Notes: generated from the sequence alone by a model not told the origin. 64,000 nt of DNA from Escherichia coli (GCF_044324785.1 NZ_CP172127.1); one strand, 5' to 3'. Counted from the stretch's first letter, positions 20,421-51,978 are shown. Numbers and translations: made by a program.

Positions 20421-20457
20421 GTGGGGGTTGTGTTTAGGGCCGGGGAGAGTCGGGGTA

Positions 20458-20505
20458 TGACTACGAAAGCCCGCTCCCCGCAAGGACTGATGCCAGGTAG
20501 TTTCT
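20458..20505 (-). repeat. Orphan duplicate of the 3' end of the H-repeat element
   Basis: About 49 bp (ctacgaaagcccgctccccgcaaggactgatgccaggtagtttctgt) is a direct repeat, with 3 mismatches, of 20592-20640, which encodes the C-terminal 16 codons of the H-rpt transposase. Confidence 0.6.
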
Positions 20506-20594
20506 GTGAGCCTGTTTACCATTCTATGTAAATGCCTTTCTCAGAAGTGACCGTCAAGGCGGTCACCGAATTCGATAATAAAGCCAGGGCAAGA

Positions 20595-21731
20595 TTACGA
20601 AAGCCCGCTCCCTGCAAGGACTGACGCCAGGTAGTTTCTGTCCATGGCTGCTTTTCGCATCTTACGTCTTAACCCTGCCTTGAATACCTTATCATTCGTC
20701 AATATATTAATAGCGATGTGCCGTATCCCTGAAAATAATTCTGCTGCATTTCCTCTTCTTATTTTGCAGTCGTCTTCATTCATTACCACGTCCAGACGCC
20801 AGTGCAGCTTATTCTCCACGTGCCAGTGGTTTCGGATTGCTGTGGCGAACTTCTCTGCGGTTAAATCAGCAGAACTGATATAATATCTGACCGTCATTTC
20901 TGGCTCTTTCTTTTGTTCTGCTATTATTGACCGAAAGGAGACTGCCACGCATAATTTCTTCAGACCTTTCCATTCAAACATGAAATCAATAAGTTCATCA
21001 AGGACATCGCAAACAATGTGAAGACGGATTTCTTCTCTGCCGTGACTCTTTTCACTAATTGCGTAACTGTCATGCTCTGGATTATTTAATTCTTTCAGCG
21101 GAAATTTTTCCTCGAAGGCTTTATTTAGCCGCCCCTGGTTTCCTTTTACAGCGAATAAATAATCACCGCCCTGTTTTTGTATCTTTCCTGCAATATCTTT
21201 CTGGCAACACATCACATCAGTTGTGATGATTTTTCCTTTAATATCCAGCATGTTAAGGAGTTCAGGGATAGCTGTAATCTCATTGGATTCCTCATCCGTC
21301 CTGATCTGTCCGATGACCAGACTGTGCATTGTTGAGAACGCACTAATGACATGAATCGCTCCCTTGCGGCGACTCTTGTCATAAGAGTGCCGGAGTGTTT
21401 TTCCATCAATTGCAATGACGCCTTTATCATCTGAAGAATGGCAGTCACGCATCCAGTTAATAAAGCACTCGTGAAATTTTGCAGGACTGATACAGGATAC
21501 AACTCTGGCAATGGTATCGTGAACAGGAATACCATTTTAAAAATCACCATATTGCTTCAAAAAATCGAGATGTGTTTCCCCAAAATCCTCTATATCTTCC
21601 CAACCTTCTGCACCCGAAATAACGGCGCAAATAGTCAACAGTAGAATATCCGATAATTTATGTTCCACTTTCCAGGCTTGTCTGTAATCGGGGATAATAG
21701 AAATATGTTCCATCAATTTTTTAAGTTACAT
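20595..21731 (-). mobile_element. H-repeat (ISAs1-family) transposase gene, disrupted by in-frame nonsense codons
   Basis: Minus-strand frame reads [70 protein letters not shown]...[36 protein letters not shown]...LAGSGLS. TAA stops at codon 2 and after GDF lie at positions recalled as GAA in intact H-rpt copies; the ORF track shows only the 285-aa C-terminal piece (20595..21452). Confidence 0.8.
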
Positions 21732-21869
21732 TTTGTTCTCCTTAATTATGTAAGGAGTATTTGATCATGTATAAGCAATAAAAAACAGCTTTAGGTAATG
21801 AGGAATATCTCAATTTTTAAACATAAAATGCGAATTACTTAGTACAAAAAAGCAGCGTTACGTGATCTT

Positions 21870-21945
21870 TCCCTGGTCCCTGTCCCGGATTGTAGTACCG
21901 GTGCCAGTTGTAGTGCAGTTCGGATTCGTCGTCATACTGCTAGCC
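21870..21945 (-). pseudogene. Orphan Rhs core-end fragment
   Basis: Minus-strand translation QYDDESELHYNWHRYYNPGQG resembles the Rhs core terminus ([22 protein letters not shown]) seen in the full Rhs gene at 22411..26640; only about 20 codons, no ORF. Confidence 0.45.
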
Positions 21946-22011
21946 CGGATGGCGGAGCAGTTGCTCTAGTCACTCAGAATATTGTAATAGTGATAGAGTG
22001 CAGTGCCGGTT

Positions 22012-49626: not shown

Positions 49627-49652
49627 CATTCATGAATACAAAGGAGCTTTAA

Positions 49653-50132
49653 ATGGCGAATTTAATTTATTTAACACTAAATGGTGATAATCAAGGGCTC
49701 ATTTCAAGTGGTTGTTCATCACAACCATCCATTGGAAATAAAGCTCAAACAGCACACATTGATCAAATTATGATTTATGAATTCATGCATGGATTAAATC
49801 GAGATCAAAACGTCAACCATCATCATTTGACAATAAAAAAACCTATAGATAAAGCATCACCCTTATTAGGTAAAGCAATTTGCGACAATGAATTATTGAC
49901 ATGTGATTTTTCCTTTTATCGTACAAATAAATTTGGAATTAATGAACTGTACTATAAAATCAAATTAACTGGAGCAAAGATAAGCGACATTCATGTCTCT
50001 ATATCACATATTGTTGTTGATAACAGCGTTCAACCCGAAGAGTCAGTTTCTTTCAGTTATGAGTCAATTATATGGGAGCATTGTTCCGCTGGCACTAGTG
50101 CATACAGTTTATGGGAAGATCGTCTTCTTTAA
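49653..50132 (+). CDS. Divergent second Hcp (Hcp-family tube protein paralog) in an AT-rich module
   Basis: 159-aa ORF with aaggag RBS; MANLIYLTLNGDNQGLISSGCSSQPSIGN... and ...WEHCSAGTSAYSLWED align with the main Hcp (MPTPCYISITGQTQGNITAGAFTADSVGN..., ...WEHVKSGTSGADDW); the DNA is visibly much more AT-rich. Confidence 0.75.
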   Translation: MANLIYLTLNGDNQGLISSGCSSQPSIGNKAQTAHIDQIMIYEFMHGLNRDQNVNHHHLTIKKPIDKASPLLGKAICDNELLTCDFSFYRTNKFGINELYYKIKLTGAKISDIHVSISHIVVDNSVQPEESVSFSYESIIWEHCSAGTSAYSLWEDRLL

Positions 50133-50152
50133 AAATATCTGGGATTATTATA

Positions 50153-51049
50153 ATGGCTAACAATATTTTACACTCTTCAACATCAGACAGTGAAAGCAAA
50201 AATACAAGCACTGACAGTACGTTATTTAATGAAAAATTCCCATTTCGATTAAGGCAAGATTTCGCATCAAGAATAACAGAAGATGAAAGTGATTTTTTTA
50301 AATGGAAAAAAATAAGAGAGTTGGCAATTGTGAGCAATCATAAAGAATGGAATAAATATGACTTATTAATTTCAAAATCTGTTAATGAAATCAACATTCA
50401 TTTGTCCAGCACTCCATACTTTCAGCCGTTGGATTGGTATATAATAAAAGCCATGCTCTGGACTGAAAACGATGCGGCAAATACTTCTCAGTGGAATGGT
50501 TATCCATTACAAATTGGTCGTTTTCGGAAAGATAAAGCGATGCCTGCTTTAATCTCTGGTGAAAAATCCACAGCCCTTGTTACCCCACCACAATGGAGAA
50601 ACAAAGCATTCAATGGGTTAAAAGATCCAGAAAGAAATTACTGGGCAAAAGAACAAATAACTGGCTCTCCAGAAGAGAATGTCAAAGCAGCAATTACTTA
50701 CTTAATGATGAAACTTTCTAATACAAAGGAAGAATCAACTATCGATCAATATGACTCAACTCTATATAGCGCCATTGTCCAAAAAGGCGATTTGGCTGAC
50801 AACATCAGAAAAGAGAGAAAAACGACCATACCTAACTTAACGAAAAACAACCCTGGAAAAAATCTCGATAAAATACACCCGGGAGATATTTTATATTATC
50901 AAAAAGCATCCATGAAAGTAATAATTACTGGATGGAAACCTATCACAATAAAAAATGTAGCGATGAATTATAATGGTGGTGGAGATCCCAAGTATGCAAT
51001 AAAACTTCAGTTCGTTTATACATTGCTCACAAAAAACAGAGTGTTATGA
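50153..51049 (+). CDS. Candidate T6SS effector, cysteine-free, possibly cell-wall-targeting
   Basis: About 298 aa (ORF track 50111..51049); AT-rich; directly downstream of hcp2 and upstream of a secreted small protein. Weak SLT/lysozyme-like motif spacing (LWTENDAANTSQWNGYPLQI ... AMNYNGGGDP), not verified. Confidence 0.5.
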   Translation: MANNILHSSTSDSESKNTSTDSTLFNEKFPFRLRQDFASRITEDESDFFKWKKIRELAIVSNHKEWNKYDLLISKSVNEINIHLSSTPYFQPLDWYIIKAMLWTENDAANTSQWNGYPLQIGRFRKDKAMPALISGEKSTALVTPPQWRNKAFNGLKDPERNYWAKEQITGSPEENVKAAITYLMMKLSNTKEESTIDQYDSTLYSAIVQKGDLADNIRKERKTTIPNLTKNNPGKNLDKIHPGDILYYQKASMKVIITGWKPITIKNVAMNYNGGGDPKYAIKLQFVYTLLTKNRVL

Positions 51050-51501
51050 GAATGGGAAAAATAACAATTATTCTACTGCTTACATTCTCATGTACAAAAG
51101 GTCTGGCATTTGACATTTCCATGTCTAAAGAATGTAGTGGCGTTGATGAACTTGAATTTGTTGATTGTGTTAAAAACTCATTTATTATGAGCACTATTAC
51201 ACTTAAAAAAGCAGAAGCAAATATAAAAGAGAAAATTAAAAAATGGAATAACGATGAGGACGAAGCAATAAGAAAAGAAGCAGTTATTTCTTTAAAAAGA
51301 CTAGAATCTTCTAATCGGGAATTTATACGTTACAGATTTGCTCAATGCTCTTTTGCTCTAACCTGGGGGGCCAGAGTAGGACGCCTGGCATTCTCTCGAC
51401 TATATCCATGCTATACTGAGTTAAACAAAATAAGAGCCATGCAACTAAACAATGCTTACATTTCAGATTTTCAAAATCCAGATGAGATATCCAGCAAATG
51501 A
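51046..51501 (+). CDS. Candidate periplasmic immunity protein (small, Cys-containing, signal peptide)
   Basis: 151-aa ORF overlapping the effector stop (ATGA); signal peptide MRMGKITIILLLTFSCTKGLA; six Cys; resemblance to LprI/DUF1311-like proteins is recalled but unverified. Confidence 0.5.
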   Translation: MRMGKITIILLLTFSCTKGLAFDISMSKECSGVDELEFVDCVKNSFIMSTITLKKAEANIKEKIKKWNNDEDEAIRKEAVISLKRLESSNREFIRYRFAQCSFALTWGARVGRLAFSRLYPCYTELNKIRAMQLNNAYISDFQNPDEISSK

Positions 51502-51854
51502 TTATTATAAAATTAAGATTAACATTACTATTTATACTGGCCACAATTACATATTCAGTACAATCAGACGAATTCGATGATCAAACCACTTACACGCAAT
51601 ACCGTTATTTTTCCACAGCCATACCAGAAGATATACGTAGATTTATGTTCTACGTAGATTTGTGCTTTGTAGATTTAGCATTCGATATCGAAACTGACTC
51701 AATGACAGCTAAAAATGATATTATTAATGAATGTACCCCATTAAAAGAAAGAAACAAAACATTAAAAGAAAAATATAAAAAAGATGAAGAGATAATAGCA
51801 ATTCTTTCCATTGCAGATGATACCATTTTAATTTATGAAGAATTAAAAAAATAA
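51498..51854 (+). CDS. Second small secreted protein (possible additional or orphan immunity protein)
   Basis: 118-aa ORF overlapping the previous stop; signal peptide MIIIKLRLTLLFILATITYSVQS; AT-rich. Confidence 0.4.
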   Translation: MIIIKLRLTLLFILATITYSVQSDEFDDQTTYTQYRYFSTAIPEDIRRFMFYVDLCFVDLAFDIETDSMTAKNDIINECTPLKERNKTLKEKYKKDEEIIAILSIADDTILIYEELKK

Positions 51855-51978
51855 CTCACATGCAATTCACTGGCAATATATATTATAATTTTATAAAAAA
51901 TCATATTTACATTATAGAAATACTCAGCTCCTGTTTGCTGCCCGCCCTAAACTACAGGCGGCAGCATAACAATAACGA

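Follow-up and report, generated by a model that had tools for sequence, protein, structure and literature searches.

Which element fills the long interval between yafV and yafT in some strains of Escherichia coli, and is it a newcomer or an old resident? The locus was studied here in a 64,000-nucleotide stretch of E. coli DNA (NZ_CP172127.1, assembly GCF_044324785.1), referred to as the window. The segment between yafV and yafT runs from 20421 to 51978, and its measured length of 31,558 bp agrees with the ~31.5 kb given in an earlier interpretation made without knowledge of the origin (the sequence-only reading). The segment is very probably an intact E. coli type VI secretion system 2 (T6SS-2) island at the aspV hotspot, in the non-B2 allele represented by ECC-1470, enterohemorrhagic E. 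coli (EHEC), and O55:H7. The assignment to T6SS-2 is grounded in synteny and nucleotide identity. The island itself is already known, because T6SS-2 at aspV has been described in the literature.

The open reading frames (ORFs) of the window were scored by profile scans against the NCBIfam curated cut-offs. All 13 core components, TssA to TssM, are present, each above its cut-off, and the core genes are single uninterrupted ORFs of the expected length with plausible starts. The hidden Markov model scans put each of these genes, together with fha and the vasI-like and vasL-like genes, in the family that the sequence-only reading had named. Its gene list and gene order were right, but it had overlooked the Rhs toxin gene and its immunity gene, the ISAs1 element, the second hcp gene (hcp2), and the effector and immunity genes that follow hcp2. 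A terminator-like hairpin was found 3' of the first hcp copy by a terminator scan (29016-28985).

As had been proposed, the plus-strand order tssB-tssC-tssE-tssF-tssG-fha-tssJ-tssK-tssL-clpV-vasI-tssA-tssM-vasL is that of Vibrio cholerae VCA0107-VCA0121 minus vasH (PMC3166118). The V. cholerae cluster, VCA0107-VCA0123, reads vipA-vipB-tssE-F-G-fha-J-K-L-clpV-(vasH)-vasI-tssA-vasK-vasL. It has vasH (VCA0117) and VCA0122, whereas the island has neither. The two also differ in that hcp and vgrG of the island lie within the cluster in divergent orientation, whereas V. cholerae has its hcp genes in auxiliary clusters and its vgrG-3 after vasL; the two clusters also carry different cargo. There is no space for vasH in the island, because clpV and vasI overlap by 4 nucleotides (42560-42563). 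No sigma-54 activator was matched among the 25 island ORFs scanned, and no -24/-12 sigma-54 consensus (TGGCAC-N5-TTGCW, at most 1 mismatch) occurs within the island, so that the reported lack of vasH is borne out by all three observations.

The characteristic T6SS-2 layout is present, with hcp-vgrG-rhs divergent from tssB...tssM-tssA2-hcp2; Cummins et al. describe a vgrG-rhs / FHA / tssA2 / tssD2 layout as T6SS-2 (PMC10711316). Published T6SS-2 of the EHEC O157:H7, O55:H7, and E. coli W type occupies the same site with the same gene content and order at 93-99% nucleotide identity, sharing hcp-vgrG-rhs on one side and tssA2(VasL)-hcp2-cargo on the other. By megablast of the cluster, the best match is E. 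coli N3 (99.4-99.6% identity), and the identities to E. coli W and O157:H7 are 93.9% and ~93-96%. For EHEC, a 37-kb T6SS at aspV has been reported, which secretes Hcp and is under H-NS repression (PMC5363993). The left 25 kb of the island (19000-43900) was used as a megablast query against 5426 complete E. coli genomes, and at least 80% of it was found in 1803 of them, about one-third.

Two variants of T6SS-2, the ECC-1470 type and the APEC-O1 type, occur at the same tRNA-Asp site and are mutually exclusive (PMC8715443). The second, B2-type allele, as in PS_131_S11 and LF82 pathogenicity island PAI I, has the same site, the same tssB-to-hcp2 order, and yafT by aspV (PMC2941450; PMC8715443). 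It differs from the allele in the window in its nucleotide identity (~84-86%, as measured for PS_131_S11, where it is syntenic at the same place) and in having no effector and immunity genes after hcp2. In some copies a Tle1-like phospholipase cargo takes the place of Rhs. The B2-type allele also lacks the 74-residue ORF found here between tssB and tssC, which are adjacent there. This ORF is 34% identical over 58 residues to TssC residues 50-102 (BLASTP, E 2e-8); it is kept in genomes with the same allele and is annotated as hypothetical in N3 and 2017.06.05CC. Both LF82 PAI I and the third T6SS of enteroaggregative E. coli 042 have been placed at aspV (PMC2941450, PMC2808357). The features of the window are collected in Table 1.

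Table 1. Features of the T6SS-2 island and its borders in the window (paired values are score/cut-off in bits; tRNA genes were called by ARAGORN)
Feature	Position	Strand	Basis
Whole variable block, ~32.7 kb	20408-53105		Comparison with empty-site strain 81009
ISAs1-family (H-repeat) element, ~1.3 kb, broken transposase gene	20448-21882	-	NF033564 1.6e-89
132-residue lipoprotein-like ORF, presumed Rhs immunity	22012-22410	-	Directly downstream of rhs
Rhs polymorphic toxin, 1409 residues	22411-26640	-	NF041261 2765 bits, cut-off 2000
vgrG (tssI), spike protein	26707-28815	-	TIGR03361 628/186
hcp (tssD) copy 1, 172 residues	29025-29543	-	TIGR03344 207/59
hcp-tssB divergent control region, AT-rich (32.8% GC), 696 bp	29544-30239		Composition
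tssB, small sheath subunit	30240-30740	+	TIGR03358 171/97
74-residue ORF, diverged tssC 5' fragment-like	30775-30999	+	BLASTP to TssC
tssC, large sheath subunit, 491 residues, intact	31050-32525	+	TIGR03355 702/272
tssE, baseplate	32532-32945	+	TIGR03357 113/53
tssF, baseplate	32949-34799	+	TIGR03359 563/260
tssG, baseplate, probable start 34763	34757-35845	+	TIGR03347 350/143
tagH, FHA-domain accessory, probable start 35870	35849-37150	+	TIGR03354 340/120
tssJ, outer-membrane lipoprotein, lipobox LTGC	37147-37671	+	TIGR03352 134/32
tssK, baseplate	37674-39005	+	TIGR03353 454/100
tssL (DotU-like), membrane complex	39010-39771	+	TIGR03349 216/90
clpV (tssH), sheath-recycling AAA+ ATPase, 927 residues, ATG 39780	39780-42563	+	TIGR03345 1123/885
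vasI, accessory protein with signal peptide	42560-43303	+	TIGR03360 258/124
tssA, 471 residues, ATG 43308	43308-44723	+	TIGR03362 491/230
tssM (IcmF-like), 1154 residues, ancestral-type start, ATG 44802	44802-48266	+	TIGR03348 946/388
VasL/TagA-like second ImpA_N protein, 449 residues	48277-49626	+	Pfam ImpA_N 3e-19, VasL 4e-23
hcp copy 2, 159 residues, 33% GC, exchangeable cargo module	49653-50132	+	TIGR03344 198 bits
Hcp-linked effector, 298 residues (312 from 50111), intact Etse4 form	50153-51049	+	Fold analysis
151-residue secreted LprI/DUF1311-like protein, predicted immunity, Etsi4 homologue	51046-51501	+	Signal peptide; Pfam LprI
118-residue secreted small protein	51498-51854	+	Signal-peptide-like N terminus
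yafT-like lipoprotein gene, inside variable block	51979-52779	-	K-12 homology; missing in strain 81009
tRNA-Asp (aspV), right anchor	53106-53182	-	ARAGORN; K-12 aspV alignment

The Etse4/Etsi4 gene pair comes after hcp, at the end of T6SS-2 nearest to aspV. This module is already published: in a 2026 study of EHEC, the very same genes received the names Etse4 and Etsi4. That study refers to the EHEC system as "E. coli T6SS-2," describes Etse4 as a LysM peptidoglycan-binding protein, and reports a periplasm-specific toxicity from which Etsi4 gives rescue (PMC12981562). The O157/O55 lineage carries the same cargo: the AT-rich module is 97.7% identical to that of O157:H7 genomes over 2352 bp, and it occurs in 364 of the 5426 genomes, mostly O157:H7 and relatives.

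Added here to the published description of Etse4 is a fold analysis, according to which the toxic part would be a lysozyme-superfamily domain; the effector is predicted to have a lysozyme/lytic-transglycosylase fold that is interrupted by a LysM domain. An exhaustive HMMER scan gave an effector family of 364 representatives, clustered at 50% identity, with the consensus WTES...PMQIG...YNGxGDP and an invariant glutamate. A LysM domain was identified in 43 of 59 family members, and weak SLT matches in 8 of the 59. With Pfam, the 312-residue form gave nothing significant, and PDB sequence searches found no match outside LysM. When relatives with N-terminal extensions were scanned with NCBIfam for fusions to Hcp or PAAR, only LysM-related matches were obtained. 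Periplasmic immunity partners are common to this pair and to Tge1 (Tse3)/Tge2 with Tgi and V. cholerae TseH. In the Pfam and PDB sequence searches, the effector showed no significant sequence similarity to these proteins and no Pfam catalytic-domain match. The pair also differs from them in that the catalytic fold is interrupted by a LysM insertion and the immunity protein is LprI/DUF1311-like.

The hcp2 gene appears to travel with this cargo. Hcp2 shares 55% amino acid identity with the Hcp2 of strains with ykfM-type cargo and 27% with Hcp1, whereas the neighboring vasL and tssM are ~95% identical between strains whose hcp2 is 55% identical. Because of this difference from the adjacent core, hcp2 is taken to co-vary with the cargo, which is what a carrier role of Hcp2 would lead one to expect. 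Judged from these identities, the unit of exchange is hcp2 plus effector plus immunity (49653-51854), with a recombination break near 49627. The small protein at the end of the module, which gave no family match in the profile scan, may be a second or orphan immunity protein. Within its ORF there is a 21-nucleotide tandem repeat (51739-51780).

At the other end of the island, the rhs gene has the architecture of an Rhs toxin, with a YD-repeat core, a PxxxxDPxGL-type motif, a variable C terminus, and a small downstream ORF. The core covers residues 1-1261 and is followed by the motif DPLGL and by a variable C-terminal domain that makes up the last ~148 residues (nucleotides 22411-22857). A permuted papain/NlpC-P60-like cysteine hydrolase of the TseH/YiiX fold is predicted for this domain by modeling. 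Nothing significant was found when the C-terminal 200 residues were compared with Pfam, and a PDB sequence search was uninformative. The 132-residue ORF downstream, whose N terminus (MEMLGKILVIIISMIIISC) has a lipobox-like signal, presumably encodes the lipoprotein that neutralizes the C-terminal toxin; an NCBIfam scan gave no family match for it. This combination of C-terminal domain and immunity gene is one of many alternative tips, and 462 genomes contain at least 80% of it.

If the gene products act as their family membership suggests, TssJ, TssL, and TssM would form the envelope-spanning membrane complex, and TssE, TssF, TssG, and TssK with VgrG would form the baseplate. TssA would prime the polymerization of the Hcp tube inside the TssBC sheath, with distal-end capture as the probable task of the VasL/TagA-like protein. 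Contraction of the sheath would then drive the Hcp/VgrG needle into an adjacent cell, after which ClpV would recycle the sheath. By analogy, both Hcp/VgrG secretion and sheath contraction are predicted for this copy. The first cargo would be the VgrG-adjacent Rhs with its cysteine-hydrolase-like C terminus and lipoprotein immunity, and the second the dedicated AT-rich hcp2 with the LysM-bearing lysozyme-fold peptidoglycan hydrolase and its periplasmic LprI-like immunity. The prey periplasm is the predicted site of action of both toxins, and the payload of the island is therefore predicted to be antibacterial, with two periplasm-acting hydrolase-like toxins that each have a secreted immunity protein. 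By analogy with EHEC, expression is probably controlled by H-NS silencing at the AT-rich hcp-tssB region rather than driven by VasH and sigma-54. Promoter-like sites in this region number 6 compared with 3.6 expected, barely above chance.

Several points weigh against this overall reading. The activity of the Rhs C-terminal domain rests on a shallow 9-sequence model (predicted local distance difference test score, pLDDT, 78.6) and on fold similarity. The match of the 151-residue immunity protein to Pfam LprI is weak (i-E 0.0029); N3 and O157 genomes carry the annotation LprI/DUF1311 for it. For the N terminus of Rhs, a PAAR domain was considered and rejected, with a visible motif and an insignificant Pfam score (E 0.058). 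In addition, killing of K-12 by the homologous EHEC system could not be detected in vitro, not even when hns was mutated, and the EHEC cluster has instead been tied to KatN catalase export and macrophage survival (PMC5363993).

The EHEC reports favor a different role, in which the island would be primarily an anti-host or stress-protection system that exports proteins such as KatN into macrophages and would not be an interbacterial weapon; there, KatN secretion was T6SS-dependent (PMC5363993). We regard this as unlikely. Both effectors of the island have periplasm-directed immunity and peptidoglycan-hydrolase-like folds, and the toxicity of Etse4 is confined to the periplasm (PMC12981562). Moreover, tssM, etse4, tssC, and rhs are all degenerate in the cluster that was assayed in EHEC but not in the copy in the window. 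Because the reports of KatN export and of no killing were obtained with a degenerate allele, they are kept as a live, though secondary, alternative to the antibacterial reading; both roles can also coexist.

The condition of the island was compared directly with four of the degenerative mutations listed for EHEC, those in tssM, the effector, tssC, and ClpV (PMC12981562). None of these four lesions is present in the window. In tssM there is one 28-bp unit (44833-44860) where EHEC has a 5' tandem duplication. Codon 74 of the effector is TCA, in contrast to a nonsense codon at nucleotides 220-222 in EHEC, and nucleotides 1390-1392 of tssC read CAG in place of the EHEC nonsense codon TAG. The SESE repeat of ClpV, which has suffered a 12-bp deletion in EHEC, is kept. 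It is part of an (SE)n repeat, ESESESESESE, at residues ~524-534 (window 41350-41380); as the tract of the EHEC deletion, it looks like a slippage-prone microsatellite in a core gene.

This state of preservation bears on whether the island might be a silent relic on its way to loss that contributes nothing, as would fit the frequent erosion of T6SS in the species (PMC10711316; PMC12981562) and the ISAs1 pseudogene at the island edge. In sequence type 410, for example, internal deletions have removed T6SS-2 together with rhs (PMC10711316). The annotation of N3, the closest genome, marks frameshifts in rhs, tssA, and vasL and a stop in the effector gene, but all four genes are intact in the window. 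With all structural genes and both effector/immunity pairs uninterrupted and the EHEC lesions missing, we consider a relic quite improbable. The damaged N3 loci (L001 15722-19510, 36196-37610, 41164-42574, and 43040-43258) may reflect either real decay or assembly errors.

The borders of the island were located by comparison with strain 81009, in which the site is empty and yafV is followed, after 98 bp, by aspV, without yafT. In an alignment judged by eye, homology between the window and the 81009 junction breaks at 20407/20408, 13 nucleotides before the yafV stop, and resumes at ~53104-53106 at the 3' end of the tRNA. From these breakpoints, the variable block is 20408-53105; it adjoins the tRNA 3' end and includes yafT. 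The sequence-only reading, which had taken yafT as the right flank of the insertion, was mistaken in this respect, whereas its placement near tRNA-Asp can be sharpened, since aspV stands directly at the right end of the block. The island thus lies at the tRNA-Asp gene aspV, between yafV and dnaQ. The left flank comprises fadE (NF038187, 1580 bits), ivy, and yafV (NF007757, 546 bits); to the right are the yafT-like gene, the tRNA-Asp, dnaQ, rnhA, and yafS. Homology to K-12 yafT (95.5%) ends at 52125, so that cargo types differ in the final ~49 codons of YafT, and by this comparison the boundary of cargo recombination falls inside yafT and not between genes.

Of the features of a classical integrase-borne tRNA island, abutment on the tRNA 3' end is present, and an integrase and a repeat at the far boundary are absent. 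No integrase was found in the scan of island ORFs; the gene adjoining the tRNA is yafT, and the sole mobility gene in the island is the ISAs1 transposase pseudogene. Searches with a 25-mer (at most 3 mismatches) and a 16-mer (at most 2) found no tRNA-Asp-derived direct repeat in the window besides the two tRNA genes, and among general direct repeats across 19400-53400 none flank the island. ORF scans and repeat searches therefore agree with what had been noted before about integrase and repeats. The Salmonella pathogenicity islands SPI-6 and SPI-20 resemble the island in that they too are found at aspV, have no flanking direct repeats, and combine 55-60% GC with AT-rich cargo (PMC2907695). They belong, however, to other T6SS phylogenetic groups with other gene orders, as that paper describes them (PMC2907695). 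The second tRNA-Asp of the window (61329-61405, minus strand) is identical to aspV in its 3' part and lies 8.2 kb away in direct orientation; judged from synteny elsewhere, it is the tRNA-Asp that closes an rrn operon, next to 5S and 23S.

Presence of the island differs across the 5426 genomes, as expected of the strain-variable hotspot that had been suggested. The yafT-aspV stretch was found in 4321 genomes (80%), and the empty yafV|aspV junction, counted as at least 80% of a 211-bp probe, in 757 (14%). Intermediate deletions of the island are seen in other genomes. Given the first two counts, an old and repeatedly eroded island fits better than a recent insertion.

K-12 provides an example of such erosion. 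The K-12 gene yafF corresponds to the last 280 bp of the ISAs1 element of the window (20596-20875) at 97.5% identity. K-12 YafU (112 residues) is 100% identical to residues 193-304 of a 304-residue protein of the T6SS-positive strain 4012, in which the gene of this YafU type directly follows hcp2 and is itself followed by ykfM. K-12 accordingly carries a deletion scar of the island, because yafF is an ISAs1 end and yafU and ykfM are hcp2-linked cargo; by these alignments, it retains both edges of a T6SS-2 island with a different hcp2-linked cargo, the middle having been lost. The yafF-yafU-ykfM stretch had earlier served as the unoccupied comparator, a use that fails now that pieces of the island are found at both of its ends. 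A homology of yafU to the effector of the window was considered and rejected; yafU belongs to the alternative cargo. A literature search on yafU and ykfM as T6SS relics found nothing relevant. In T6SS-positive strains the 304-residue Hcp2-linked protein has a glycine-rich hydrophobic tail. The ykfM gene is presumably the immunity gene of the YafU-type protein, and K-12 may thus keep an orphan T6SS immunity gene (K-12 locus L002 4258-5379, with ykfM, yafU, and yafF, compared with L003 6477-7880).

That the island is a recent arrival in a yafV-yafT interval with nothing else in it, K-12 still showing the pre-insertion state, is very improbable: the locus does vary among strains, adjoins a tRNA gene, and contains an island with a GC content unlike that of its flanks, but K-12 keeps island pieces at both ends (yafF as the ISAs1 end, yafU and ykfM as Hcp-linked cargo), the true empty site joins yafV to aspV without yafT, the empty junction is far rarer than the yafT-aspV stretch, and partial deletions occur in other strains (PMC10711316). 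We favor instead an old resident of the yafV-aspV hotspot that would have been eroded by deletion again and again, K-12 being one scar, and whose cargo ends would have been swapped by recombination. The dominant process visible at the locus appears to be erosion and cargo exchange of a long-resident island and not recent insertion. The island may also predate the diversification of E. coli, an "ancestral" status that is an inference.

The base composition of the island is a mosaic. From tssB to vasL the GC content is 55.8%, and it reaches 63.6% in the Rhs core. It falls to 39.6% in the Rhs C-terminal domain and 36.9% in the spacer and Rhs immunity gene. The hcp-tssB intergenic region, hcp2 (32.9%), and the cargo linked to hcp2 (32.8%) are the most AT-rich parts, and the left and right flanks have 52% and 48%. 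At the left end, the ISAs1 element lies between yafV and the Rhs immunity gene, which is the classical Rhs/H-rpt arrangement. Its transposase ORFs (20595-21452 and 21212-21550) cover positions 66-314 of the NF033564 profile; the transposase is annotated as a pseudogene in N3, and homology to ISAs1 ends at ~21882. Two copies of the ISAs1 3' end are present (20448-20507 and 20582-20641), 134 bp apart and 88% identical, where K-12 has one; the 60-nucleotide copy at 20448-20507 is a solo insertion sequence end beside the longer element.

Outside the island, lafU and a 5'-truncated flhA pseudogene would form a remnant of the Flag-2 lateral flagellar cluster between dinB and yafL, at ~10400-12900 of the window as extrapolated from N3 (L001 3438-5907), and the GC content rises to 57-59% at 11-13 kb of the window, coinciding with this remnant. 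Further left, the N3 annotation shows a full-length prfH beside an RtcB-family ligase gene.

A broader joint reading is offered as tentative, its chances somewhat below even. The effector would be one of a fairly large family for which no curated model exists and which shows several architectures, including N-terminal fusions; its members would be LysM-interrupted, lysozyme-fold, peptidoglycan-cleaving toxins with the glutamate of WTES as the catalytic residue, whose nature as lytic transglycosylases or muramidases has gone unrecognized. In the same reading, ykfM of K-12 would be an orphan T6SS immunity gene and yafU a toxin stump.

For annotation the impact is small, since this is a textbook T6SS-2 in an allele carried by about one-third of complete E. 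coli genomes. The value of the window is that it offers an intact reference copy of an allele that is degenerate in EHEC O157:H7, where tssC, the effector, the tssM start, and the SESE tract of ClpV are damaged, and it may help to ask what the undamaged system does. The description of the locus is also tidied: yafV and the 3' end of aspV bound the hotspot, yafT moves together with the island, and the cryptic genes yafF, yafU, and ykfM of K-12 are relics of it.

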